From the NCBI GenBank assembly GCA_903835255.1, contig CAILMI010000026.1, positions 2,740 to 66,739 on the forward strand: a stretch of 64,000 nt of DNA, written 5' to 3'. Numbering within the stretch: position 1 is the stretch's first letter; every line of letters begins with the position of its first letter. This DNA is from an uncultured Verrucomicrobia subdivision 3 bacterium (lineage in GTDB: Bacteria; Verrucomicrobiota; Verrucomicrobiia; Limisphaerales; UBA11358). A model generated the notes under the pieces. It was not told the origin of the DNA. It made no database searches and saw only the letters and a list, made by a program, of their open reading frames with translations. Shown here in pieces: positions 3,582 through 16,727 of the stretch. The position numbers and the translations under genes were made by a program.

Positions 3582-5624
3582 ATGGCCAACTTGAGCTCAC
3601 TGAATCCGCAACAACGCCAGGCCGCTGAGACCCTTCACGGCCCGATTTTGATCCTGGCCGGGGCGGGCACCGGCAAGACGCGCGTCATCACCTACCGCAT
3701 CGCGCACCTCATCGACCAGGGCGTCCCGCCGGAGAACATCCTGGCCGTCACCTTCACGAACAAGGCCGCGCGCGAGATGCAGGAGCGCATCCACAAGCTG
3801 CTGCCGCACCTGAAGGCCCGGAAGCGCGACGGGGAACCGCCCAAGCGCCCGACCCTGTGCACGTTCCATTCCCTGTGCGTCCGCATCTTGCGCGCCCACA
3901 TCGAGGCTCTCGGCTACAAGCGCAACTTCGTCATCTACGACGAATCCGAGCAGCTCGCGGCCGTGAAAAAAATTCTGAGCAGCATCTCGGCCAAGGGCGA
4001 AAAGACCGACCCCGGGGCTATTCTCGCCCTGCTGAGCAAGTTCAAGAACGGGGGCGAGGCCTCGGCGGCGTTCGCGGACCCCAGCGTGCGCGCGCTGGCC
4101 CAGCACATCCGCACGCGCTACGAATCCGCCCTGCGCGCCTGCAACGCCGTGGATTTCGACGACCTGATCCTGCTGACGCTGCGGCTGTTCAATGAATTCC
4201 CCGACGTGCTGGAAGTCTGCCGCGCCAAATACCGCTATGTCATGGCGGACGAGTATCAGGACACCAACGGCTCGCAGTTCCAGCTGATCCACGCGCTGAC
4301 GCTGAAGCATCGCAACCTCTGCGTGGTGGGCGACGACGACCAGAGCATTTACGGCTGGCGCGGCGCGGAGATCGCCAACCTGCTGGACCTGGAAAAACAT
4401 TACCCCGAGGTGAAGATCGTCAAGCTCGAGCAGAACTACCGCTCGACCAACACAATCCTGACGGCCGCCAACGCGCTGATCAAAAACAACACGCGCCGCC
4501 GTGCCAAGCAGCTGTGGTCGCAAAAGGGCCAGGGAACGAAGATCCTGCTGCGCGCCTGCAGCAACGAGGAGGAGGAGGCCACCGAGCTGGTGGGGCAGAT
4601 TGAATTCGCCCGGCTGGCGCACCGCATTTCGTGGAAGGAGAATGCGATCCTGTTCCGCACCAACATCCAGTCGCGGCCGATTGAAACGGCGCTGCGCAAG
4701 GCGGGCGTGCGCTATCACCTGATCGGCGGGCAAAGCTTTTTCGACCGGCGCGAGATCCGGGATTTCCTCGCCTATCTCAAGATGTTCATCAACCCGCACG
4801 ACGACATCAGCCTCCTGCGGATCGCCAACACCCCCGCCCGGGGGCTGAGCGACGTGACGATGGAGCGGCTGCTGGCCGCCAGCCAGGAACGTCAGTGCTC
4901 GGTGTTCGCCGCCATGAAAAACCCGCTGGTGCAGTCGAGCTTCCAGAAGCGGACGCAGGAATGCCTTGCGACGTTCGTGGAGTTTGTGGAGCGCACGCGG
5001 GCGACCCTGGCCGACCCGGCCGCCCAGCACGAGCCCAAGGTCTTGCAGGCCTGGGCGGATCATTTTCTCGACGAGTCCGGCTACCTGCATGAACTGCGCC
5101 GCCAGGAAAAGGAAGCCGAAGCCGGCGAAGCCCGCGTCCGCAATCTGCGCGACCTGACCGCCACGCTGGATGGCAGCGATGCCGTCGGCAAGGCGCTGTT
5201 CGAGCGGCTGGAGGCATTCCTCGAGAACATCACGCTCGACTCCGACCGGGAAGAGGAGGAGGAAAAAGGCGACGTCGTCACGCTCATCACCATGCACAGC
5301 TGCAAGGGACTGGAGTTTCCGCGCGTGTACATCGTCGGGCTGGAGGACGGGCTGCTGCCGCACACGCGCTCGACGGTTGAAGGCACGCTGGACGAGGAGC
5401 GGCGGCTGTTCTACGTGGCCGTCACGCGGGCGATGCTGTCGCTCACCATCAGCCATTGTGCGAGCCGGAAGAAATACGGACAACTGCTGCCCTGCCACCC
5501 CTCCCGTTTTCTCAAGGAACTGCCCCTGGAACTCGTGGAGCAAGCCGAGGAAAGGGAGCAGAAGCCGGTGAGCGCGGCGGTTGGAAAAAGCCTGTTTGAT
5601 GCCATGCGGGAAGCCATGGAGTGA
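3582..5624 (+). CDS. ATP-dependent DNA helicase, Rep/UvrD/PcrA family
   Basis: Walker A AGAGTGKT, DEYQD, VVGDDDQSIY, QNYRS, TMHSCKGLEF, EERRLFYVAVTRA; ATG 3582 preferred over TTG 3549. Confidence 0.95.
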   Translation: MANLSSLNPQQRQAAETLHGPILILAGAGTGKTRVITYRIAHLIDQGVPPENILAVTFTNKAAREMQERIHKLLPHLKARKRDGEPPKRPTLCTFHSLCVRILRAHIEALGYKRNFVIYDESEQLAAVKKILSSISAKGEKTDPGAILALLSKFKNGGEASAAFADPSVRALAQHIRTRYESALRACNAVDFDDLILLTLRLFNEFPDVLEVCRAKYRYVMADEYQDTNGSQFQLIHALTLKHRNLCVVGDDDQSIYGWRGAEIANLLDLEKHYPEVKIVKLEQNYRSTNTILTAANALIKNNTRRRAKQLWSQKGQGTKILLRACSNEEEEATELVGQIEFARLAHRISWKENAILFRTNIQSRPIETALRKAGVRYHLIGGQSFFDRREIRDFLAYLKMFINPHDDISLLRIANTPARGLSDVTMERLLAASQERQCSVFAAMKNPLVQSSFQKRTQECLATFVEFVERTRATLADPAAQHEPKVLQAWADHFLDESGYLHELRRQEKEAEAGEARVRNLRDLTATLDGSDAVGKALFERLEAFLENITLDSDREEEEEKGDVVTLITMHSCKGLEFPRVYIVGLEDGLLPHTRSTVEGTLDEERRLFYVAVTRAMLSLTISHCASRKKYGQLLPCHPSRFLKELPLELVEQAEEREQKPVSAAVGKSLFDAMREAME

Positions 5625-5649
5625 CCCGCCTGCACGGGCTGGGGGACGA

Positions 5650-6618
5650 CTAGGGGCGGGCGCACAGAAAGACCCCCTCCTCACCTGAGGGCGTGACCCA
5701 TTCCTGGAGAACGGAAAGCCCGTGGCGGCCGAGCGCCTGACGGACTCGGCTGGGCGTGTAACGGTAGGAGAAAAAGAGGCGGATGACTTCACCGCGACGG
5801 AATTCAAACGACTTGGATTCAATCTGAAAGCGGCGACGGCGATGGAAGCGGAACCGCGCCACGACCCGCTTGAGCCCCGAGCCGCCCGTCTCTACTCCCA
5901 TCTCCAGCGTGCCGTCACTGCGCTCCACCCCCAGGTCGAGCAGGAAAGTCAGCAGCCAGTCGCGCGTGAGCGCATTGTCGTACTGCGGGAGAATTTTCGC
6001 CATCCCGGCGGCGTCATCCCCGCCCGGTGCCAGATTCGCGCTGAACAATAAAAAATCCCGGGGGCGGACCAGCGCTGACAGCTTGGACAAAATGGCTGAC
6101 GGCTCGAAATTGGGAATCATGCCGAAGAAAGTCACCAGAGTGGGCTGACGGGAAAGAAGGGCGGCAGGCAAATCCTCCGCCGTGGCCAGATCGCACACGA
6201 AGGGAAAACAGCTTTTGTCCGGCAGCACGGCGAGCGCGGCCTGGCGGGCGACCAGGACCATGGCGGTGCTGACGTCGCAGGGCGTGTAAGAAACCCCCTT
6301 GCCGGCGGCCTTCAATAATTTCAGAAGGCGCGTGTCCTTTTGTCCCCCGCCGCAGCCCAGGCCGAGCACGTGGACGCGGCGGGCCGTGAGATGACGCGCC
6401 GCCTGCTCAAAGGCGAGGTCATAGGTGGCCGCGCACGACGCGTCGTTGCGGGAGGGGGAATAGGCCTGGTGCAATGCGAGCCATTGCTGCGTTTGCCGAG
6501 GGCTGTCGTAGTGAAACTTGTGATTCACCCGCCGCGTGCGCAGCGAGACAAGCAGATCGCGCCGGACGTTTTCAGGAAACTGGCTGTCGTGGATTGTGAC
6601 GCGCGCGGGGGATTTCAT
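5650..6618 (-). CDS. SAM-dependent methyltransferase, EgtD (histidine N-methyltransferase)-like, divergent
   Basis: HKFHYDS resembles EgtD PKYFYD; SAM motif VLGLGCGGGQKD; C-terminal FFSYRYT. Confidence 0.65.
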   Translation of the reverse strand: MKSPARVTIHDSQFPENVRRDLLVSLRTRRVNHKFHYDSPRQTQQWLALHQAYSPSRNDASCAATYDLAFEQAARHLTARRVHVLGLGCGGGQKDTRLLKLLKAAGKGVSYTPCDVSTAMVLVARQAALAVLPDKSCFPFVCDLATAEDLPAALLSRQPTLVTFFGMIPNFEPSAILSKLSALVRPRDFLLFSANLAPGGDDAAGMAKILPQYDNALTRDWLLTFLLDLGVERSDGTLEMGVETGGSGLKRVVARFRFHRRRRFQIESKSFEFRRGEVIRLFFSYRYTPSRVRQALGRHGLSVLQEWVTPSGEEGVFLCARP

Positions 6619-6625
6619 GCGCGGC

Positions 6626-7054
6626 TCATGGTTGCGGGAAGATCCGGTAGAGCATCAAATAAACTCCAACGCCCGTCACCGACACATACATCCACAGCGG
6701 CCAGGTCCAGCGGGCAATGCGTTTGTGCCCCTCAAAATCCTGGCGCCGGGCGCGGTACAGCGTCATCAGAATCAAGGGGACGATGACGACCGCCAGAACG
6801 GTGTGCGTGAGCAGGATGCCCAGATAAATGGGGCGGAACCAGGCGGGCTCAACAAAATGGGTGACGGTTTTGACCGTGGCATGATAGGTCAGGTAGCACG
6901 CCAGAAACACGATCGACGTGGTGAATGCCGCGATCATGCAGTTGCGATGCGCAATTTTATTTCCGCGTTTGATAAAGATGAATCCCAGCGCCAGAAAGAC
7001 CGCGCTCAGACTATTGAGGGCGGCGTTGACGGCGGGCAGATCGTGCAGGGTCAT
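6626..7054 (-). CDS. DUF420 family membrane protein
   Basis: Four TM helices, AHRNCM, HTVLA, HKRIARWTWPLWMYVSVTGV; typical neighbour of cox genes. Confidence 0.85.
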   Translation of the reverse strand: MTLHDLPAVNAALNSLSAVFLALGFIFIKRGNKIAHRNCMIAAFTTSIVFLACYLTYHATVKTVTHFVEPAWFRPIYLGILLTHTVLAVVIVPLILMTLYRARRQDFEGHKRIARWTWPLWMYVSVTGVGVYLMLYRIFPQP

Positions 7055-7707
7055 GGTTCGCGTTCGAGTTGGTGAATCGTCTCAAGGAGGCGCGGCTGGA
7101 CGGCGGACCATTCCACGCCCTCGCCCCCGGTTTCAAAGACGGCTCTCAGCCGGGCGTGCTTGTCCACCACGACAAAAATTGTGGTGTGGATGAACAGGTC
7201 CGCGGCATTTTTCTGGTCATCCGCCTTCACGGCCTGGGCGCTCAATTTGAGACTGCCGGCGGCGAGCGCAGCGACCTCCTGTTTTGTGCCCGTGAGAAAA
7301 AACCAGCGGCGGGGATCGGCCTGAAAGCGCTCCCCATATTTCTGAAGCACGGCAGGCGTATCGAAATCAGGGTCGGTGGTGAGGGTCACCAGTTTGGCGG
7401 TGCTGGAGGCCGGCAGCAGCTCCTGCAGGGACTGCATCTGACGGGTCAGGCGCGGGCAGGGTCCGGCGCAGCGGGTGAAGATGATGTCGCCCACCCAGAC
7501 CTGGTTGGTCAGGTCGGCAAGGGTCGTGACCCGGCCGCTCTGGTTAGTCAGGGTGAAATCAGCAATGGAGCCGAGGACCGGCAATGCGCCGGGATGCGCG
7601 CGCTGGAGCTGGGCGAGGGAAACGAGGTACGCCAGCGCCATAAGACCCGTGAGCAGGCTGAACCCGAGCCAGAGGGTTCGAGGCAGTTGCCGAGGGTTTT
7701 CAGCCAT
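7051..7707 (-). CDS. sco: SCO family copper chaperone
   Basis: IFTRCAGPCP (CxxxC), conserved His in IHTT, N-terminal TM anchor. Confidence 0.9.
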   Translation of the reverse strand: MAENPRQLPRTLWLGFSLLTGLMALAYLVSLAQLQRAHPGALPVLGSIADFTLTNQSGRVTTLADLTNQVWVGDIIFTRCAGPCPRLTRQMQSLQELLPASSTAKLVTLTTDPDFDTPAVLQKYGERFQADPRRWFFLTGTKQEVAALAAGSLKLSAQAVKADDQKNAADLFIHTTIFVVVDKHARLRAVFETGGEGVEWSAVQPRLLETIHQLEREP

Positions 7708-7737
7708 GGACGTTAGGGGGGCGCCGGCGCGGGCGGC

Positions 7738-8505
7738 TCACTCGAAGCTCGTCTGGGCGCCGGTCTTGGACTTGAGCCACTGGTTGTATTCGGCCGGGGA
7801 TTGCACGACTAGAAAGCCGCCAGCCATGTTGGCGTGCAGCGCGCCGCAGAGCTGGGCGCAATTGATCTGGTAGCGGCCGGTCTGGGTGGGATTGAACCAG
7901 ACGGGAATCCGCAGGCCGGGAATCGCATCCTGACACACCCGCATGGAAATGATTTTCAGCGAATGGATCACGTCCTTGGAGCTCAGATAAACGATGACCG
8001 GCTTTCCGAGCGGCACGTGGATTTCATTGAGCAATTGCACATCGTCCTTGCCGTTGGGGTCGGACGGGTCCACGCCAAAAACGTTGTCGAGCTGAACGAA
8101 CTTCATGTCCTGCCGGCCGAATTCGCCATCGGTCCCGGCATAGCGGGCGTTCCAGGCGTATTGCTGGGCGACGACCTGGATCACGGTGGAATCCTTCGCC
8201 GCAGGAAATTGGTCCACTGCCTTGGCCCAGAGGGGCACGGCAATGAAGATCAGCAGCACCGCCTCGGCGAGGACGACGCCCAGCTCCAGGTAGCTCGAGG
8301 CGTGGTTTTTCACCCCCACATAATCGGCCTTGGGGTTGCGCGACTGGCGGAACCGGTTCACGACGTAGAGGAAATAGACGATCCATCCGACGAACAGCGC
8401 GATCATCAGCCAGTGCACGTAGATGACCAGGTCGTCAACGCCCTGGCCGTTAGTGGAGGCCAGCGGGGGGAGGCCGAGGAGATGTTCGCCAAACCAGTTT
8501 TTCAT
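7738..8505 (-). CDS. ctaC: Cytochrome c oxidase subunit II
   Basis: Two TM helices; CuA ligands DVIHS and CAQLCGALHANM. Confidence 0.92.
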   Translation of the reverse strand: MKNWFGEHLLGLPPLASTNGQGVDDLVIYVHWLMIALFVGWIVYFLYVVNRFRQSRNPKADYVGVKNHASSYLELGVVLAEAVLLIFIAVPLWAKAVDQFPAAKDSTVIQVVAQQYAWNARYAGTDGEFGRQDMKFVQLDNVFGVDPSDPNGKDDVQLLNEIHVPLGKPVIVYLSSKDVIHSLKIISMRVCQDAIPGLRIPVWFNPTQTGRYQINCAQLCGALHANMAGGFLVVQSPAEYNQWLKSKTGAQTSFE

Positions 8506-8762
8506 ACTTCAGTCAGAGTCTTGGACGGGGGAGGGTTAACCGCAGCGGTTTCCCGGCGGATGAGATAAACAAAAAAAGTGGCGACGGTCGCCAGCACGGT
8601 GACGATGACGCCCAGCAGCGTGAAAATACCCCAGTTCATGCCCTGGGCCATGGGCGAATCGGACTGGCCAAAACAGGTGGCGCAGGCGAACAGCGGGGCC
8701 GGCAAGCCGGCGGCCAGCAGCACCGCCAGAATCCGTTTTAAATGGAGGCGCGGAGATATCAC
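8502..8762 (-). CDS. Small membrane protein with CxxC motif (cox-operon accessory)
   Basis: Signal-like N-terminus, ACATCFG, one TM helix; 4-bp overlaps with both neighbours. Confidence 0.7.
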   Translation of the reverse strand: MISPRLHLKRILAVLLAAGLPAPLFACATCFGQSDSPMAQGMNWGIFTLLGVIVTVLATVATFFVYLIRRETAAVNPPPSKTLTEV

Positions 8763-8944
8763 AGATAGCGAATCTTTTTCAACTTCTTCAAAAAGTAAAC
8801 ACCGTAGAAGACGACTCCCAGGCCGGCAATGAGGGACGCCGCGCCGGAAGCCGGATGGCCCGACGCAAAGGCCCAGGACGCGCTCCCGAAGGCCAGCCCG
8901 GTGAGCAGGGTGACAAACACAAGATGAAAGGCTTTTAATGACAT
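8759..8944 (-). CDS. Small two-TM hypothetical protein
   Basis: 61 aa hydrophobic ORF packed inside the operon. Confidence 0.7.
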   Translation of the reverse strand: MSLKAFHLVFVTLLTGLAFGSASWAFASGHPASGAASLIAGLGVVFYGVYFLKKLKKIRYL

Positions 8945-8945
8945 A

Positions 8946-9263
8946 TCAGTGCATCTGGGTGCCGACCGGGAAATCGCCCATGGCCCAGAGGGTCAGACCC
9001 ATCAGGACGGCGAAAAAAAACACCGTGAAGGCCAGCAGGGCGTAGATCATTTTCTTCTCGGACAGCAAATGCATGAGGAAGCCGGCGACGACGAAGGCGT
9101 TGACGCAGGCCACGGCGAGGATGAGGGCGACCTTGGCCGGCCACCCATAATGCGGCAGGAAGGAGATGCCGATCATCAGCGCCGTGGTGCACACCACGGC
9201 GATGAAAACATAGACACAGCGCCGGACGTACGCGGAATACTCCACAGGATGGGATTCGCTCAT
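8946..9263 (-). CDS. ctaF: Cytochrome c oxidase subunit IV family protein
   Basis: Three TM helices, FLMHL motif, position after subunit III. Confidence 0.75.
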   Translation of the reverse strand: MSESHPVEYSAYVRRCVYVFIAVVCTTALMIGISFLPHYGWPAKVALILAVACVNAFVVAGFLMHLLSEKKMIYALLAFTVFFFAVLMGLTLWAMGDFPVGTQMH

Positions 9264-9269
9264 AAATTT

Positions 9270-10139
9270 TTACATTAAATAAAGGACCGGGAACAGGAAG
9301 ATCCAGACCAGGTCCACAAAATGCCAGAACAACCCGGAAATCTCGATCCGGTTGGTGAACCGCTCGGGATCGGTCGCCCACATTTTCCGGCCCGGGCCCC
9401 ACAGGTAGCCGATGACCAGGGTGCCGCCCAGAATGTGCAGGGCGTGCAGGCCGGTGAGGGTGAAATAAATGGCAAGGAAGGTGTTGTGCCAGGGCCCGTA
9501 ATTTTCCATGGACTTGATGTGCGCGCGCTCCACCGTGACGCTTCCGTGCTCGATGTGCTTCTGCGCCCGCAAATCCATGAGATCTTTTTCATCGGTCACA
9601 ATGCGCCCCTCCAGCGTCACCGATTCTAATTCGTAATGATGGGTGACGCCCTCGGACACCTTGGAAAAGGCATTGCCGCGGTAGCGGTGCTCCTCCACTT
9701 CCTGGTGCGTGGCTTGATCCACATACACCGCGCTTTCAAAATGGCCGTCGGCAAACCGCCCATCCGTCATCTTGATTTCATAATGGATCCACTTGTCGTG
9801 GTACTCGTACATTTTCACGCACAGGAACGTCAGCGCCAGCGCGATGGTGCAAGCGTGGAAAAACTTGAATTTACGGAAATTTCCGACCTTGCACGCGACC
9901 CACGCCAGCAGGGTCGTGATGGCTGAGAGCGCGAGGATGACGGTATTGAGCGTGCCGAGCCAGACATTGAGCCAGCCGTGCGGCCATTCGCCGGGGGCGG
10001 CCCCGACGCGGAGCAGCACATAAGCGGAGAAAAGGCCGCCGAAGAGCATCACTTCCGACGCCAAGAAAAGCCAGATGCCGAGCTTGGCGTTGTAAAGGCC
10101 GGTGTCCGGCCGGGGCTTGGAGGTATAGGGAATTTCCAT
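9270..10139 (-). CDS. ctaE: Cytochrome c oxidase subunit III with a soluble insertion
   Basis: WLFLASEVMLFGGLF, YFTLTGLHALH, WHFVDLVWIFLFP. Confidence 0.9.
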   Translation of the reverse strand: MEIPYTSKPRPDTGLYNAKLGIWLFLASEVMLFGGLFSAYVLLRVGAAPGEWPHGWLNVWLGTLNTVILALSAITTLLAWVACKVGNFRKFKFFHACTIALALTFLCVKMYEYHDKWIHYEIKMTDGRFADGHFESAVYVDQATHQEVEEHRYRGNAFSKVSEGVTHHYELESVTLEGRIVTDEKDLMDLRAQKHIEHGSVTVERAHIKSMENYGPWHNTFLAIYFTLTGLHALHILGGTLVIGYLWGPGRKMWATDPERFTNRIEISGLFWHFVDLVWIFLFPVLYLM

Positions 10140-10142
10140 GAA

Positions 10143-12017
10143 TCAATGTGCGGTTGCAGGGAGAGGTTTGTCCGCCGGCCCGGCCGGTTCATTCTGGGGG
10201 ATGAAATCCACCGCGTGCCCGGGCACGCTGTATTCGTACGGACCGTGGTGCACCTGCGGTTCGTGGGTGAAATTGCCGTGCGGCGGCGGCGTGGGGGTCT
10301 GCCACTCGAGCGTGGTGGCGTCCCAGGGATTATCATTCTTCACTTTTTCACCGTGCTTGATGCTCCAAAAGACATTGATGATGAAGGGGATTTGGGCGAT
10401 CCCCAGGCACATGGCGCCCCACAGGATGCCCGTGTGCAGCGATAGGATACTGTCGCTCAGACCGCCCACCGCATCCGCGCCCGCCTTGCTATTGACGGCG
10501 GCAGAATAGTTGGCGCCGCCGTCGGACATGCGCCGGAGCATGCCCGACATGCCCTGGAAGAACATGGGCAGGAAGACGACGTTCATGAACACGAAGGAAC
10601 CCCAGAAATGCACCCGGCCCCAGAACTCATTCATCATCCGCCCAGTCATTTTGGGATACCAATAATAAACGCCGGCAAACAGCGCGAAAATGGTTCCAGG
10701 CGCCACCACGTAATGGAAGTGGGCAATGATATAATAGGTGTCGTGCAGGTGCACGTCGCTGACGTTGAAGCCCAGCGGCAAACCCGTCAACCCCCCGATG
10801 CCGAACATCGGCAGGAACGCCAGGGCGAACAGCATCGGCGTGTTGAAGCGGATCGAGCCCCCCCAGAGCGAGATGAAAAAACACGTCAGGATGATGACCG
10901 AGGGGATGGAGATGATCATCGTCGTCGCTTGGAAGAAGGTGGAGATTTTCGTGCCCATGCCGGTCAGGTACATGTGGTGCGCCCAGACGATGAAGGACAG
11001 GAAGCCGACGGCCAGCACCGCGTACACAAGCGATTTGTAGCCCCAGATCGGCTTGCGAGTGTTGTTGGCAATGACCTCGCAGACAATGCCCATGGCCGGC
11101 AAAATCAGGACATACACCTCCGGATGTCCGAGGAACCAGAACAGATGCTGCCACAGCAGCGGGCTGCCGCCGCCGCTGACATTGGCCAGCTGGCCGCCCA
11201 CGGCCAGGCCGGTCGGCAAAAAGAAGCTCGTGTGGGCCACGTTGTCCATCAGCTGCATGACGGCGGCGGCTTCCAGCGGCGGGAACGCCAGCAGAAGAAT
11301 GAACGCCGTGACGAACTGGGTCCAGACAAACCAGGGCAGGCGCATCCATGTCATGCCCGGCGCCCGCAATTGAATGATGGTGGCGATGAAATTCGCCGCG
11401 CCCAGCAGCGAGGAGGTGATCAAGAAAATCATCCCGATGATCCAGAACAGCTGGCCGTCGGTGGGGATGGTCGTCGCCAGTGGCGAATACGAGGTCCATC
11501 CCGCCTGGGCCGCGCCGCCGGGAATAAAAAAGCTGACCAGCATGATTAGGCCGCCGATGAAATACGCCTGAAAGCTGGCCATGTTCAGCCGCGGAAAGGT
11601 CATGTCCGGCGCCCCGATCATCAGCGGCACCACGTAATTGCCGAACGCCGCAAAGGCCAGCGGCACGATGCCCAGGAACACCATGATTGTCCCGTGCATC
11701 GCCCCGAAGGAATTGTAGAGCTCCGGTGAAATCGCGCCGCCGGCGGCCACCTGGCCCAGCACCCGCTCCAGCAGCGGCCCGATGAAGGGCACCGGGATTC
11801 CCGGATGCGCAATCTGCCAGCGCATCAGGAGCATCAGCCCGAATCCGAACAGCATGAACAGCAGCGCGGTAATGCCGTATTGGATTCCGATGGTTTTATG
11901 GTCGGTGGAAAAAATGTATTTCTCCCAGAAGCCCGGCTCGGGATGAGCATGGTCGCCGTGACCGGAATGGGTGTCTGCCGGGCGGAACGGGGGGAATTGG
12001 TGAACGGTCGTTTCCAT
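10143..12017 (-). CDS. ctaD: Cytochrome c oxidase subunit I (A1-type heme-copper oxidase)
   Basis: HGTIM, GHPEVY, WAHHM, HDTYYIIAHFHY. Confidence 0.97.
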   Translation of the reverse strand: METTVHQFPPFRPADTHSGHGDHAHPEPGFWEKYIFSTDHKTIGIQYGITALLFMLFGFGLMLLMRWQIAHPGIPVPFIGPLLERVLGQVAAGGAISPELYNSFGAMHGTIMVFLGIVPLAFAAFGNYVVPLMIGAPDMTFPRLNMASFQAYFIGGLIMLVSFFIPGGAAQAGWTSYSPLATTIPTDGQLFWIIGMIFLITSSLLGAANFIATIIQLRAPGMTWMRLPWFVWTQFVTAFILLLAFPPLEAAAVMQLMDNVAHTSFFLPTGLAVGGQLANVSGGGSPLLWQHLFWFLGHPEVYVLILPAMGIVCEVIANNTRKPIWGYKSLVYAVLAVGFLSFIVWAHHMYLTGMGTKISTFFQATTMIISIPSVIILTCFFISLWGGSIRFNTPMLFALAFLPMFGIGGLTGLPLGFNVSDVHLHDTYYIIAHFHYVVAPGTIFALFAGVYYWYPKMTGRMMNEFWGRVHFWGSFVFMNVVFLPMFFQGMSGMLRRMSDGGANYSAAVNSKAGADAVGGLSDSILSLHTGILWGAMCLGIAQIPFIINVFWSIKHGEKVKNDNPWDATTLEWQTPTPPPHGNFTHEPQVHHGPYEYSVPGHAVDFIPQNEPAGPADKPLPATAH

Positions 12018-12020
12018 AAT

Positions 12021-12923
12021 TTATTTAAGTTTATCCCAGACCAGCAGCGCCAGCAGCAAGGGCAGGTAGAGGATGGAGGCGAAAAAGAGCTGCCGCGCCC
12101 GCGCCAGGGTCAGCTGCCGCGAAAACTGGATGGCGCTCCACAGAAAAGCCGCGCCCAACAGCAGCGCGCCGGCCAGATAAAACGTCCCCGCCATCCTGAA
12201 CACAAAGGGGAACAGGCTCACCGCTAGCAGCGCCAGCGTATTGCTCACGGCCTGCTGCCCCGTGCGCCGTCCGTCCGGATCCACCCCGGGCAGCATTTTG
12301 AATCCCGCCTTCGCATAGTCCTCCCGATACATCCAGGCAATGGCAAAGAAATGGGGCAGCTGCCAGAAAAATAAAATGGCGAACAAGGCCCACCCCTCAC
12401 TGCTCCACTCGCCGCGCGCCGCCGTCCACCCCATCAACGGCGGCAAGGCCCCGGGTACCGCCCCAATCACCGTGTTCAGCCAGGTCACCCGCTTGAGCGG
12501 CGTGTACAGAAAAAGATAGCTGACCAGCGTGATCGCGCCCAGAACACACGTCAGGAGGTTGACGGCCAGCGCCAGATACACCAGGCCAGCCACGGAACTC
12601 GCCCCACCAAAAATCATCACCGTCGTCGGCTGCATCCGGCCCGACGGCAGCGGACGGCTTTGGGTCCGGCGCATCCGGGCGTCATAATCGCGCTCCAGCA
12701 GCTGGTTCAACGCCGCTGCGCCGGCGGCCACCAGCGCCGTGGCGGCCAGCGTGTTGAACATCAGTGCAAAATTCATCGCCCCGCGCCACCCGAGATAAAA
12801 CCCGACCAACGTCGTCAGCAGCACAAGCGTGGTGAGGCGCGCCTTGACCAGATCGGCCCAGACGGCAGCCCAGCTTTTTTCGCCGGCGGCAGCATTTAAA
12901 ATGTCCGCGGAAACTTCTTTCAT
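12021..12923 (-). CDS. ctaB: Protoheme IX farnesyltransferase (heme O synthase)
   Basis: NQLLERDYDARMRRTQSRPLPSG, YTPLKR, WQLPHF. Confidence 0.95.
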   Translation of the reverse strand: MKEVSADILNAAAGEKSWAAVWADLVKARLTTLVLLTTLVGFYLGWRGAMNFALMFNTLAATALVAAGAAALNQLLERDYDARMRRTQSRPLPSGRMQPTTVMIFGGASSVAGLVYLALAVNLLTCVLGAITLVSYLFLYTPLKRVTWLNTVIGAVPGALPPLMGWTAARGEWSSEGWALFAILFFWQLPHFFAIAWMYREDYAKAGFKMLPGVDPDGRRTGQQAVSNTLALLAVSLFPFVFRMAGTFYLAGALLLGAAFLWSAIQFSRQLTLARARQLFFASILYLPLLLALLVWDKLK

Positions 12924-13975
12924 TTCATTGACGGGACCCCTGAAAAGGCCCCCACCCCGAACCCGCCGGAAGCTTGAACAGCCGAATCCGACGTGAAACG
13001 TCTAAAAGCAATAAGGCACGCCACGGCGCCTGTCACGAGCGAAAGCGCTCCCACCAGGACATGCCCGGTGGCCACGTCTGCCGCCTTGTTCGTCCAAATG
13101 GTCGCCGCCCCCAGCCCGACCTGCACCCCCATCAGCACCAACCAGAACAGGGTGAACCGGCTCAGGACATCCCCGCCCCCCCGCTGACGCCGCGACAGCA
13201 CAGCGCAGGCGGCTGTCAGAAACACAATGACCAGCGCCATGGCGCGATGCACCATCTGCAGCTGGATTTGAAAGGCGGTGACGGGAGCCTCCTCGGTGAC
13301 GGAAACGCGGCGGCTATTGTAAAGGGCGACGGCATCGGGGCTAGTGTCCGGCCATACTTTTCCGTAGGCCAGAGGGAAATCAGGAATGGCCAGCCCGGCG
13401 TGCTGATGCCGCATCGTCGCCGCAATAATTAATTGGGCGAAAATGATCAGCGTCGTGCAGAGCAGAAGGGTTTTTAGGCCGCTCGAAACAGAGGGAAGGG
13501 TTCCCCCTCTGATCCAAAAACGGCTGGTAAACAGTGTGATGGCGCAGAGCAGAACAAAAAACACCTGCGCCACGGTGGCGTGAAAGATTCCCAGCGAATC
13601 CATGTGCAATGTCACGCGCAGTCCGCCAAGGATGCCTTGCGCGATAACGCCGAGGAAAGCGGCCACACCAAGCCAGCGGAGCCAGCGCCGGGAATCCGAC
13701 ATCCAAATCCAAACGGCCAGCACCGTCGTGAGCAGGCCCACGGCCGAGGCCAGCAACCGGTGGGTGTGCTCATAGAAAATGCCGCCGACCCACTGTGAAA
13801 TCGGGAAGGTGAACATGTTGTAACCATACGTATTGGGCCAGTCCGGCACCGACATGCCCACGCCATAACTGGTCACCAAGCCGCCCAAACCCACCAATAA
13901 AAACGTGGTAAAGGCTGTAATCCCTGCAAACCGGAACATCCAGGGACGAATTATTGGGGGACTTGTTTTACTCAT
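12920..13975 (-). CDS. ctaA: Heme A synthase (COX15/CtaA)
   Basis: GMSVPDWP, EHTHR, QGILGG, HATVA, QMVHR. Confidence 0.9.
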   Translation of the reverse strand: MSKTSPPIIRPWMFRFAGITAFTTFLLVGLGGLVTSYGVGMSVPDWPNTYGYNMFTFPISQWVGGIFYEHTHRLLASAVGLLTTVLAVWIWMSDSRRWLRWLGVAAFLGVIAQGILGGLRVTLHMDSLGIFHATVAQVFFVLLCAITLFTSRFWIRGGTLPSVSSGLKTLLLCTTLIIFAQLIIAATMRHQHAGLAIPDFPLAYGKVWPDTSPDAVALYNSRRVSVTEEAPVTAFQIQLQMVHRAMALVIVFLTAACAVLSRRQRGGGDVLSRFTLFWLVLMGVQVGLGAATIWTNKAADVATGHVLVGALSLVTGAVACLIAFRRFTSDSAVQASGGFGVGAFSGVPSMK

Positions 13976-13990
13976 GCGTTTTACTCATGC
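13965..13990. repeat. 13-bp tandem duplication of the ctaA start region
   Basis: GTTTTACTCATGC x2. Confidence 0.9.
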
Positions 13991-14044
13991 CTGAAAACAG
14001 TCAGCACGTTCAACCGAACGGAGAATCAATTCTCCGGCCGGGGG

Positions 14045-14746
14045 TTATTTGGATTCAAAGGTGAATTGGGCGCTCGCTCCGGTCGCCCCGACCTCAATCT
14101 CCTGGGTTTGAACCCCGAGCTTGCGATGTGAGGCCTGCATCGTGTATTTGCCGGGCGGCACATTTTTAATGACAAAGCTTCCGTCCGTGCCGCTGACACA
14201 AAAATACGGACTGTCGAACACCGTCACCCAGGCGAACATCCACGGGTGCACATCGCATTGGAATTTCAAAAACGGCTCCGGATTGGCAAAGGTGTAGGTC
14301 AGGTCCGCGCCGCCCGGCATCTGAACATCGTTGGACTCCGGATTGCCCGCCGCAGTGGGCTTGGAATGAACATTGTGGACGCAGGCATCGGAGTTTTTGA
14401 CGACGATTTTCTGGCCTGTCTGCACCGCGACAATGGTCGGCAGATAGAGACAGCCTTTTTGGTCAATCACCACGGGCGGCGCGCCGGCGCCGGCAGCGGG
14501 TCCCGCCGCCCCCTTCAGGGACACCACCACATCCGCCAGTTCCCCCTTGGCTCCCACCACGTAAAACCGGGTCAGCGGAGCCTTGGTGTAGCCGGGGCTG
14601 CAATTCGGGTCATCCAAAATCGGCGTGATTTCCTTTTCACTGGGCGGCACGCCCTTGAAAACGACAGTTCCGGTGAGGTCGGCGGCGGTGGCAGCCGGCC
14701 CCACAGCCAGCATCGCGCCCAATAGGAAAAAAGAGAATATCTTCAT
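14045..14746 (-). CDS. Exported cupredoxin-like / carboxypeptidase-regulatory-like domain protein
   Basis: Signal peptide from ATG 14746 (MKIFSFFLL); DQKGCLY, HNVH, CDVHPWM motifs. Confidence 0.75.
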   Translation of the reverse strand: MKIFSFFLLGAMLAVGPAATAADLTGTVVFKGVPPSEKEITPILDDPNCSPGYTKAPLTRFYVVGAKGELADVVVSLKGAAGPAAGAGAPPVVIDQKGCLYLPTIVAVQTGQKIVVKNSDACVHNVHSKPTAAGNPESNDVQMPGGADLTYTFANPEPFLKFQCDVHPWMFAWVTVFDSPYFCVSGTDGSFVIKNVPPGKYTMQASHRKLGVQTQEIEVGATGASAQFTFESK

Positions 14747-15098
14747 AATTTCGTCGCCAAATTTAGCACCCTGAAACACCGGGTCAAGTTCTTCGTGAAT
14801 TTTTTCACAAGCGCCCCCGGAAAAACCTCCGCGCGCGCCCCCGCTGGCTGTTCTCAGGGCCCGAATCCACCTCGCAGGAACCTGAAAAAGCGGCCGAAGA
14901 CCGGTTTCGCCCCTGCAGCAGTTTTGAATGACGCCGCCGGCCAACCAGTTCTGGCAGGACGCCCTCCACCACCCTGCCGCCCGCAACACTCGCTACCCTC
15001 GCGGCAAAGCGATGAGGAATTGCATGTCTTGCGCCCTTCGACGATTGAATACCATTTCCGCTTTGGCTCGCGCGGCGTTAGTTGCTAGTTTCAAGCCG

Positions 15099-16727
15099 AT
15101 GCCGGACATCGTCCTCACTACCCTCAACGCCAAGTACAGCCATGCCGCGTTCGGACTGCGCTACCTGTACGCCAACCTCGGCGAGCTGCAGCCCCGCGCC
15201 GTCATCGCCGAATTTGACATCAACCTGCGCCCGCTCGATATCGCCGAGGCCCTGCTCGCACGCGAACCGCGCATCCTCGGCTTCGGCATCTACATCTGGA
15301 ACGTCGCGCAGACCACCGAGGTCATCGCCGCCCTCCGGCGCGTCCGGCCGGAAATCCTCATCATCCTCGGCGGCCCGGAAGTCAGCTACGAGACGGAGGG
15401 GCAGAAAATCGTGGAACTGGCCGACCACGTCATCACCGGCGAGGCGGACCTGAAATTTGCCGAGGTGTGCGAACAGTTGCTTTTGCCGGGGCGCAGATCC
15501 TCTCCAGCTTTGACTGAAAATCCCGGCTCAGTGGAAACCCGACCTGCCGCTGGCTTGCCAAAAATCATCGCCGCCGGTGTGCCAGACGTCTCGCGCCTCG
15601 CCCTGCCCTACGATTTTTACACGGAAGCGGATCTGGCGCATCGCATCGTGTACGTGGAGGCGTCGCGGGGCTGCCCTTTCACCTGTGAATTCTGCCTGTC
15701 GTCGCTCGACATCCCCGTGCGCCAGGTCCCGCTGGAGCCGTTTCTGGACGCGATGCAGCGCCTGCTGGACCGGGGATTAAAGCAGTTCAAGTTCGTGGAC
15801 CGCACCTTCAACCTGAACATCGCCACCAGCAAGGCGCTCCTGAAATTCTTCCTGGCGCGCCATCAGCCTGGGATGTTCTTCCATTTTGAGATGATCCCCG
15901 ACCGCCTGCCCGCCGAGCTGCGCACCGTGATCGCCCAGTTCCCCCCCGGATCGCTGCAGTTCGAGGTGGGAATCCAGACGTTCAATCCGGCGGTCGGCGC
16001 GCTCATCAGCCGCCGCCAGAATTACGAGCGGCTCGCGGACAATTTCCATTTCCTGCGGAACGAAACGCGCGTCCACATCCATGCGGACCTGATCGTGGGA
16101 CTGCCCGGGGAAACGCTGGAAAGCTTTGGCGCCGGGTTCGACCGGCTCCTCGCGCTCGGCCCGCAGGAAATCCAGGTCGGGATCCTGAAACGGCTGAGGG
16201 GCACGCCCATCATCCGGCACGACGCGGAGTGGCAGATGGTTTACGGCGCCCCTCCGCCCTACGAGATTTTGCAGAATAAGCTGCTCGATTTCGCCACACT
16301 GCAGCGGCTGCGCCGCTTCGCAAAATACTGGGACCTGATCGGCAACAGCGGCAACTTCGTGGCCGTCGCCCCGCTGATCTGGGCCGCCGCGGGACCCGGC
16401 GCCCGGCAGGCCCCGGGAGACGAGAAGGCGCCGCCACCGTCGCCGTTTCAGGCCTTCCTCCGGCTCAGCGACTGGCTTCATGCCCGGCTCGGGCGCACCG
16501 ACAGCATCGCGCTGGCGCGGCTGATGGAAGGGCTATTTGAATTCCTCACCCGCGAACGGGGGCACGATTCCGGCCGGGTGATCGAAGCTTTCCGGGAAGA
16601 CGGGCGGCGGACCGGCCGGCGCGAGACCCCCGCCTTCCTGAAGGAATCCGGGACGGCCGATAGGGCCGATGTCCGCGTCCGCGACCGGTCGCTGCCCAAA
16701 CGCCAGGCACGGCATTGGGCGCCATGA
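15099..16727 (+). CDS. B12-binding radical SAM protein (DUF4080-type C-terminus)
   Basis: LNAKYSH, ILGGPEVSYE, SRGCPFTCEFCLS (CxxxCxxC), FVDRTFN; ATG 15099 follows a -10 box. Confidence 0.85.
   Translation: MPDIVLTTLNAKYSHAAFGLRYLYANLGELQPRAVIAEFDINLRPLDIAEALLAREPRILGFGIYIWNVAQTTEVIAALRRVRPEILIILGGPEVSYETEGQKIVELADHVITGEADLKFAEVCEQLLLPGRRSSPALTENPGSVETRPAAGLPKIIAAGVPDVSRLALPYDFYTEADLAHRIVYVEASRGCPFTCEFCLSSLDIPVRQVPLEPFLDAMQRLLDRGLKQFKFVDRTFNLNIATSKALLKFFLARHQPGMFFHFEMIPDRLPAELRTVIAQFPPGSLQFEVGIQTFNPAVGALISRRQNYERLADNFHFLRNETRVHIHADLIVGLPGETLESFGAGFDRLLALGPQEIQVGILKRLRGTPIIRHDAEWQMVYGAPPPYEILQNKLLDFATLQRLRRFAKYWDLIGNSGNFVAVAPLIWAAAGPGARQAPGDEKAPPPSPFQAFLRLSDWLHARLGRTDSIALARLMEGLFEFLTRERGHDSGRVIEAFREDGRRTGRRETPAFLKESGTADRADVRVRDRSLPKRQARHWAP

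Follow-up and report, generated by a model that had tools for sequence, protein, structure and literature searches.

Here, we report that the first gene of an aa3-type cytochrome oxidase operon in an uncultured Verrucomicrobia subdivision 3 bacterium encodes a small exported protein, hereafter Cup, which, judging from its sequence and structural model, very probably transfers electrons by means of a type-1 copper site. We consider it somewhat better than an even chance that Cup serves the downstream aa3 oxidase as a blue-copper carrier or donor of electrons, as an accessory or alternative route rather than an obligatory one. The gene lies in a 64,000-nucleotide stretch of contig CAILMI010000026.1, which we call the window and to which positions refer unless stated otherwise. 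An original prediction, made from the letters of this stretch, had proposed a blue-copper protein that may serve the oxidase as electron donor or copper carrier. Cup represents a widespread, uncharacterised family of nested two-domain cupredoxins with a conserved position in oxidase and heme A operons. The gene and its predicted parts are as follows.

14045-14746, minus strand: Cup gene (P0001), encoding a 233-amino acid (aa) exported nested cupredoxin, from the open reading frame (ORF) and its translation.
14681-14746, minus strand: residues 1-22, predicted signal peptide MKIFSFFLLGAMLAVGPAATAA, read from the sequence and from the predicted local distance difference test (pLDDT) of the model.
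14483-14680, minus strand: residues 23-88, first strand or strands of the carboxypeptidase-regulatory-like sandwich (strands 22-31 and 74-78) and the loop with C49.
14216-14482, minus strand: residues ~89-177, cupredoxin domain, from VIA-align, Foldseek, and PF00127.
14366-14377, minus strand: residues 124-127, HNVH, with the first putative histidine ligand H124 and with Asn125, aligned to amicyanin PHNV.
14237-14257, minus strand: residues 164-170, CDVHPWM, with the putative ligands C164, H167, and M170, aligned to CTPHPFM and CTLHPWM.
14045-14215, minus strand: residues 178-233 and the stop codon, C-terminal strands of the carboxypeptidase-regulatory-like (transthyretin-like) sandwich, from PF13620 and the fold match.

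All four putative copper ligands are aligned by phmmer onto the ligands of amicyanin 3c75 and of the Nitrosopumilus cupredoxin domain 9cck, and the spacing in the cysteine loop is C-x2-H-x2-M, i.e., of the amicyanin type. The original prediction had named the right His/Cys/His/Met set (H124, C164, H167, and M170), but the spacing that it gave, Cys-x-His-x-Met, was wrong. In the AlphaFold2 model, H124 sits at the start of a strand and the C164/H167/M170 loop lies between strands 157-163 and 171-177; this predicted placement is the canonical type-1 arrangement. Of the 150 top-scoring representatives of 50%-identity clusters in a pattern-free HMMER search, 134 have CxxHxxM, nearly all of them reading CD[VI]HPWM, and so the copper motifs are not a matter of chance. 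We also scanned one genome per species and obtained 80 loci, chosen on the Cys-loop pattern alone; H124 is kept in all 80 of them and N125 in 79. An asparagine following the first histidine is a hallmark of type-1 copper sites.

The model was computed by AlphaFold2 from an alignment of 68 diverse homologs (mean pLDDT 93.4, predicted template modeling score 0.87), and it contains a Greek-key cupredoxin beta-sandwich. The cupredoxin part superposes on plastocyanin 7pcy with a Z score of 12.3 and a root-mean-square deviation (rmsd) of 1.6 Å over 86 of 98 residues (VIA-align), and on amicyanin with Z ~11. Foldseek matches of the model comprise amicyanin, plastocyanin, and pseudoazurin, and CuA domains match too. 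At the sequence level PF00127 is borderline, i.e., 20.8 bits against a cut-off of 21.2 in hmmscan and 22.0, above the cut-off, in the six-frame genome scan. The outer domain resembles domain II of carboxypeptidase D (1qmu; Z 11.2, rmsd 1.9 Å, 79 residues) and 2nsm (Z 11.1), and PF13620 scores 29 bits over residues 174-224 against a cut-off of 32.3, which homologs exceed. The match to the carboxypeptidase D/N regulatory domain spans model residues 22 to 233, taking in the N-terminal strand or strands and the C-terminal 55 residues; therefore, the cupredoxin appears as an insert that splits the transthyretin-like sandwich. In the model, Cup is thus a cupredoxin nested within a carboxypeptidase-regulatory-like beta-sandwich, an architecture unusual among cupredoxins. 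C49 and C99 are invariant, and a disulfide between them would tie the cupredoxin insert to the N-terminal loop.

The genomic position of Cup is as distinctive as its fold. In the window, the order on the minus strand is Cup-ctaA-ctaB-coxI-coxIII-coxIV-(two small ORFs)-coxII-SCO1-DUF420, with a gap of 69 bp between Cup and ctaA, as expected from the earlier placement of the gene at the head of the operon, directly upstream of ctaA on the same strand. Conservation of this linkage had been suggested as a check, and the linkage is kept across phyla: in 54 of the 68 loci with ≥1.5 kb of downstream sequence, the next same-strand gene is a cta or cox gene (ctaA in 40, coxI in six, coxII in five, and ctaB in three). 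Such loci occur in about ten phyla, including Verrucomicrobiota, Acidobacteriota, Planctomycetota, Omnitrophota, and Gemmatimonadota, further Ignavibacteriota/Bacteroidota, Fidelibacterota, and Bdellovibrionota, and Cup is always the first gene at these loci, whatever gene comes next. Where ≥7 kb of downstream sequence was available (52 loci), 23 have Cup-ctaAB-cox, 10 have Cup-ctaAB without coxI or coxII, eight have Cup directly before coxI or coxII (three of these eight without ctaAB in the locus), and 11 have neither. In a tree of Cup copies, the cox-linked copies form the backbone, and membrane-anchored paralogs and non-cox copies emerge from within it several times. Please note that four records of metagenome-assembled genomes (MAGs; L005, L022, L036, and L055) carry verrucomicrobial or acidobacterial versions of the operon under the titles "uncultured Bifidobacteriaceae" or "Klebsiella sp."; they are probably mislabelled bins.

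Among 151 genomes of the order to which the window belongs, 124 have both Cup and heme A synthase (PF02628), 15 have neither, six have Cup alone, and six have CtaA alone; because related genomes are not independent, these counts do not amount to a statistical test.

Outside the oxidase loci, the same module is found in proteins and neighborhoods of redox character. It forms the C-terminus, with CDVHPWM kept, of ~1950-aa proteins that have eight CxxCH motifs and cytochrome c domains (P0280 and P0281). It also follows the Urate_ox_N membrane domain (PF06181) in three metagenomic proteins of 530-548 aa (P0283, P0286, and P0287), again with CDVHPWM and with no CxxCH. Canonical PuuD has a C-terminal cytochrome c electron-transfer domain (PMC4562309), and these three sequences, in which the Cup module stands in the place of that domain, would be a copper-dependent PuuD variant. 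Other non-cox contexts are likewise redox ones, with CCP_MauG di-heme peroxidases, multiheme cytochromes, NnrS, and hemerythrin. The fusions to eight-heme cytochromes c, the replacement of the PuuD domain, and the adjacency to di-heme peroxidases together support an electron-transfer role for Cup.

Several of these contexts are worth recording in their own right. In MAGs of Bryobacteraceae and other Acidobacteriota, Cup comes after a di-heme cytochrome c peroxidase of the CCP_MauG type (L054:8833-10645 and L059:8864-11675), a cassette suggestive of a peroxidase that comes with a donor of its own; cupredoxins have an established role in passing electrons to di-heme cytochrome c peroxidases. In L059 and in a Solibacter MAG (L063:3179-4996), Cup is followed by a YncE-like beta-propeller lipoprotein, checked against Pfam in L059 only. 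L063 has the propeller-like gene only, not the peroxidase, and the Cup copies of L054, L059, and L063 fall into a single clade on the tree. Some paralogs, a minority, have one transmembrane helix and a Pro/Ala-rich linker as their anchor, and the ~350-aa membrane-anchored paralogs have variable, uninformative genomic contexts. In seven further paralogs (P0124, P0238, P0241, P0274, P0278, P0285, and P0288), the module, with its ligands kept, forms the periplasmic domain of zf-HC2 anti-sigma factors or belongs to called fusions with extracytoplasmic function (ECF) sigma factors, which suggests copper- or redox-sensing ECF systems.

The Cup ORF starts with ATG at 14746, ends with the stop codon at 14045-14047 on the minus strand, and is the sole copy in its genome. 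At least 3477 homologs are full-length, at ~233 aa, and since they align from residue 1, a longer GTG-initiated frame of 314 aa is not supported. The N-terminal segment MKIFSFFLLGAMLAVGPAATAA has the n-, h-, and c-regions of a Sec signal peptide, is followed by the residues DL, and lacks a lipobox cysteine; the pLDDT is 53-64 over residues 1-20, as against >90 elsewhere. This looks like a cleavable Sec signal peptide without an anchor, and the protein had rightly been called exported; many homologs have a lipobox or a transmembrane anchor in place of the plain signal peptide. Just 5' of the start codon there is one sigma-70-like match where 0.6 would be expected from a consensus scan, and the gene beyond, a B12/radical S-adenosylmethionine (SAM) gene, is divergently oriented and has no match in the 80 related loci, i.e., that linkage is not conserved. 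A candidate intrinsic terminator after Cup, which could uncouple its expression, was rejected (a hairpin without a U-run, z = -1.2, not significant).

14760-14787, minus strand: sigma-70-like promoter match TTGACC-16-TAAATT with an extended TG, from the consensus scan only.

The family comprises 11,045 clusters at 50% identity with E ≤ 1e-3, and 653 with E ≤ 1e-30, in a HMMER search of 1.84 billion cluster representatives. Databases carry its members as "plastocyanin" (JGI), "Blue (Type 1) copper domain protein" (automatic annotation), or "carboxypeptidase regulatory-like domain-containing protein" (NCBI). In NCBIfam there is no curated model for Cup, a sub-threshold amicyanin match being the sole hit, and we found neither a solved structure of the family nor a paper on it. 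The top PDB match overall is 9cck (E 0.00076), the C-terminal cupredoxin domain of a Nitrosopumilus multicopper protein, and amicyanin is the closest stand-alone cupredoxin (E 0.005).

The remaining genes of the operon in the window are the following.

12920-13975, minus strand: ctaA, heme A synthase, directly 3' of Cup (PF02628, 104.8 bits).
12021-12923, minus strand: ctaB, heme O synthase (PF01040, 204.7 bits).
10143-12017, minus strand: coxI, heme-copper oxidase subunit I (PF00115, 440 bits).
9270-10139, minus strand: coxIII (PF00510).
8946-9263, minus strand: coxIV-like subunit (TIGR02229 caa3_sub_IV and PF03626, both under the cut-off).
8502-8944, minus strand: a pair of small membrane ORFs whose start and stop codons overlap (61 aa, 8759-8944; 86 aa, 8502-8762).
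7738-8505, minus strand: coxII with the CuA motif CAQLCGALHANM and no heme c (PF00116, TIGR02866).
7051-7707, minus strand: SCO1/SenC copper chaperone (PF02630, 79.6 bits).
6626-7054, minus strand: DUF420 (CtaM-like) membrane protein (PF04238, 150 bits).

All six frames of positions 5001-15200, CoxII included, are free of CxxCH, which rules out a cytochrome c hidden in the oxidase cluster. Both earlier observations, that subunit II has no c-heme and that the cluster has no CxxCH gene, are borne out, and subunit II has the CuA motif. The same is true of the linked CoxII proteins in the survey, where 36 of 36 have CuA and none has CxxCH. Between coxIV and coxII, the 61-aa ORF encodes a two-helix membrane protein, and the 86-aa ORF combines a signal-like N-terminus with the conserved motif CATCFGQ(S/T)DSP and a single transmembrane helix. 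Neither has a Pfam or NCBIfam family match. Related loci keep the ~500-bp slot that the two ORFs occupy, and L107 and L111 again have the CxxC ORF; the products may be oxidase subunits or copper/thiol biogenesis factors. Directly 3' of DUF420, at the tail of the oxidase string (5650-6618, minus strand), there is an EgtD-like histidine-specific SAM methyltransferase (PF10017).

The genome to which the window belongs (3.17 Mb, 97.5% complete) falls, by the names of homologs and by its neighbors on the tree, in Verrucomicrobiota and is subdivision-3/Pedosphaera-like. It has three heme-copper oxidases, i.e., the A-type enzyme of the window, a cbb3 oxidase (contig 53), and a cbb3-like oxidase adjoining alternative complex III (ACIII; contig 68). 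On the last contig (~78900-89850, outside the window), the genes for ActA with five CxxCH motifs and for ActB, C, D, E, and F precede those for a 476-aa heme-copper oxidase subunit I and a pair of cytochrome c subunits; ACIII is genetically paired with this C-family-like (cbb3-like) oxidase, not with the aa3 operon. Neither cytochrome b/bc1, nor the copper chaperone PCuAC (PF04314), nor any PF00127 protein other than Cup was found in the genome. ACIII genes lie near Cup in one of the 80 loci, a Vicinamibacterales MAG (L077:2010-6023), in which NrfD/ActC-like, ActD-like, and ActF-like membrane genes stand immediately 5' of Cup-coxI-coxIII-coxIV-coxII. ActA, ActB, and ActE are absent from this locus, and the genes further 5' are unrelated. 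It may be a trimmed quinol-interacting module coupled to a cupredoxin and an oxidase, as a single case.

If Cup is a type-1 copper protein, blue or green, that carries electrons to the aa3 oxidase, it would be exported by the Sec route, take up one copper ion in the periplasm, cycle between Cu(I) and Cu(II), and pass electrons to CuA of the downstream enzyme. The source of electrons would be ACIII, the only quinol:acceptor oxidoreductase of the genome, either directly or via a cytochrome c, and the carboxypeptidase-regulatory-like domain may act as a docking or spacer module. Cup would then correspond to the c domain of caa3 oxidases without being covalently attached. What the analysis shows is the fold, the ligand set, the export signals, the conserved linkage to the operon, and the employment of the module for electron transfer in fusions, whereas copper binding, the partner, and the direction in which electrons flow are inferred. 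Of the roles considered, that of electron donor, put forward by the original prediction, is the best supported one by the type-1 module, the redox fusions, and the linkage, but not in the sense of an obligatory donor.

A number of observations weigh against this reading. Six genomes of the same order have the same ctaA-ctaB-coxI-III-IV-coxII operon, in which CoxII lacks heme c, yet a homolog of Cup is missing from them at E ≤ 1e-5; their operons begin at ctaA, with no substitute gene, and therefore Cup is dispensable for this oxidase type. As CoxII lacks heme c in these relatives too, this is a property of the lineage, independent of Cup, and we dropped the heme-c-less CoxII as an argument for a donor role. 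Where heme A and oxidase genes lie apart, Cup stays with ctaA-ctaB in 10 loci, and of the loci with Cup directly before coxI or coxII only three have no ctaAB. Other candidate donors are present in the genome, i.e., monoheme cytochromes c on contigs C30 and C48, and ActE. Among 8000 scored candidates there is no fusion of Cup to COX2 or COX15, which is weak evidence, the missing COX2 fusion being the part that counts against a role as donor. The minority of paralogs fused to anti-sigma or ECF domains means that the module can also serve in signaling. Cup (isoelectric point 5.8) and the periplasmic domain of CoxII (5.9) are both mildly acidic; there is no electrostatic complementarity, and the comparison is uninformative. 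In Flavobacterium johnsoniae, the one studied ACIII-linked oxidase, aa3 receives its electrons straight from ACIII, within a supercomplex and with no diffusible carrier between them (PMC8552683), and hence a carrier is not logically required.

The tight association of Cup with ctaA keeps another role in play, which we consider unlikely: that Cup is the redox partner of heme A synthase, moving electrons to or from the periplasm-facing heme b of CtaA during the conversion of heme O to heme A. We know of no bacterial redox partner identified for this step. Such a role would explain why Cup is glued to ctaA-ctaB even apart from the structural genes of the oxidase: ctaA is by far its commonest immediate neighbor (40 of 68 loci), Cup-ctaA-ctaB stands without any coxI or coxII in 10 of the 52 long loci, Cup presence tracks PF02628 in 139 of the 151 genomes of the order, and the electron-transfer nature of the module, as seen in its fold and fusions, would suit it as well. 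On the other hand, type-1 copper, with a potential of ~+250-350 mV, would reduce a b-type heme only poorly. Cup also stands directly before coxI or coxII in eight loci, three of which lack ctaAB, six genomes have ctaA without Cup, and the absence of a Cup-COX15 fusion noted above speaks against a partnership with CtaA. Moreover, Cup is not tied to one CtaA type, because the phyla that have it include lineages reported with different CtaA types (PMC8239418). We give about the same low credence to Cup as a periplasmic copper chaperone or buffer that would work with SCO1 in metallating CuA (or CuB) and substitute for PCuAC. The absence of PCuAC from a nearly complete genome is what keeps this copper-delivery role under consideration; SCO1 lies in the same operon, Cup stands among biogenesis genes (ctaA, ctaB, SCO, and DUF420), the PCuAC fold is also cupredoxin-like (PMC9145763), and the dispensability of Cup fits chaperones that are required only at low copper. 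The predicted site tells against it, however, being a complete type-1 set with a cysteine and an H-N dyad on a rigid, short amicyanin-type loop, without the PCuAC motif H(M)x10Mx21HxM and without His/Met-rich tails, and the multiheme fusions and the replaced cytochrome c domain point to electron transfer rather than metal delivery. The copper carrier that the original prediction offered as its second option is thus the less likely of its two roles, given a buried Cys/His/His/Met site that is not of the PCuAC type, even though the genome lacks PCuAC.

It is quite unlikely, in our view, that Cup resembles AcoP in being a stably bound periplasmic partner that stabilizes or tunes the oxidase and transfers electrons only secondarily or not at all. 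Its place in the operon does parallel that of cup/AcoP of Acidithiobacillus, the extra beta-sandwich domain could act in docking, and the lipoprotein and transmembrane-anchored forms with long linkers would be held at the membrane; yet the Cup of the window has a cleavable signal peptide and no anchor, Cup paralogs occur in many unrelated contexts, and AcoP is neither among the PDB sequence matches to Cup at E ≤ 10 nor among the listed fold matches. That Cup is a copper or redox sensor domain, as in the anti-sigma paralogs but here as a free periplasmic protein, seems highly improbable. Some paralogs do have zf-HC2 anti-sigma N-termini or are called ECF sigma fusions, with the copper ligands kept, but the Cup of the window lacks transmembrane and cytoplasmic parts, the cox-linked copies have no conserved regulator gene beside them, and on the tree the anchored paralogs branch off repeatedly inside the cox-linked group. 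We therefore keep the electron carrier to aa3 as our preferred reading, and it is not our purpose to claim more for it than a somewhat better than even chance.

Cup was compared with several known systems. Amicyanin of Paracoccus (1aac, 3c75), its best stand-alone cupredoxin relative in the PDB, shares the short loop C-x2-H-P-aromatic-M, with CTPHPFM and PHNVH against CDVHPWM and VHNVH in Cup. The amicyanin equivalog TIGR02657, however, scores 16.6 bits on Cup, far from its cut-off of 110.2, and Cup is twice as long, is nested in a second domain, and neighbors cta and cox genes without any methylamine dehydrogenase (mau) context. Plastocyanin and pseudoazurin (PF00127), soluble carriers between membrane complexes, have the same His/Cys/His/Met set, and plastocyanin is the best structural match; the ligand loop of Cup is shorter, and Cup has in addition the nested extra domain and the C49-C99 pair. 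AcoP ("cup") of Acidithiobacillus ferrooxidans is likewise encoded by a cupredoxin gene just 5' of cytochrome oxidase genes (coxB) and is thought to act with aa3, but it has no detectable sequence relation to Cup, and only the operon position is analogous; AcoP, which comes from an acidophile, is a green copper protein with one domain, a membrane anchor, and a longer ligand loop. Archaeal sulfocyanin and halocyanin are blue-copper substitutes for cytochrome c as well, acting between a complex that oxidizes quinol and a terminal acceptor; they are single-domain, of other subfamilies, and not nested in a transthyretin-like domain. Auracyanin of Chloroflexus/Roseiflexus, a blue-copper protein that replaces cytochrome c between ACIII and the terminal acceptor and takes electrons from ACIII (PMC8552683), is a functional parallel; it belongs to another subfamily, is single-domain and not nested in a transthyretin-like domain, and 6kol is a weaker Foldseek match to Cup. 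PCuAC, a periplasmic protein with a cupredoxin-like fold, acts on CuA together with Sco (PMC9145763), but its His/Met motif has no cysteine, and PF04314 does not match Cup. In functional terms, we propose as an analog of Cup the cytochrome c domain present in caa3 CoxII and in PuuD, i.e., an electron-entry module for a membrane oxidase, although cofactor and fold are unrelated and Cup in the window is a separate polypeptide.

Verrucomicrobiota, Acidobacteriota, Planctomycetota, and Gemmatimonadota count with the most abundant bacteria of soil and freshwater. Cup at the head of the operon is a concrete candidate for electron delivery to their heme-c-less aa3 oxidases, or for a step in oxidase biogenesis. 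The finding also matters for reading metagenomes, in which the NCBI name of this protein says only that it is a carboxypeptidase regulatory-like domain-containing protein. One and the same module recurs in multiheme cytochromes, in PuuD-like oxidases, and in anti-sigma factors. If Cup does carry electrons to aa3, aerobic respiration in these phyla would be partly copper-dependent at the level of the carrier.

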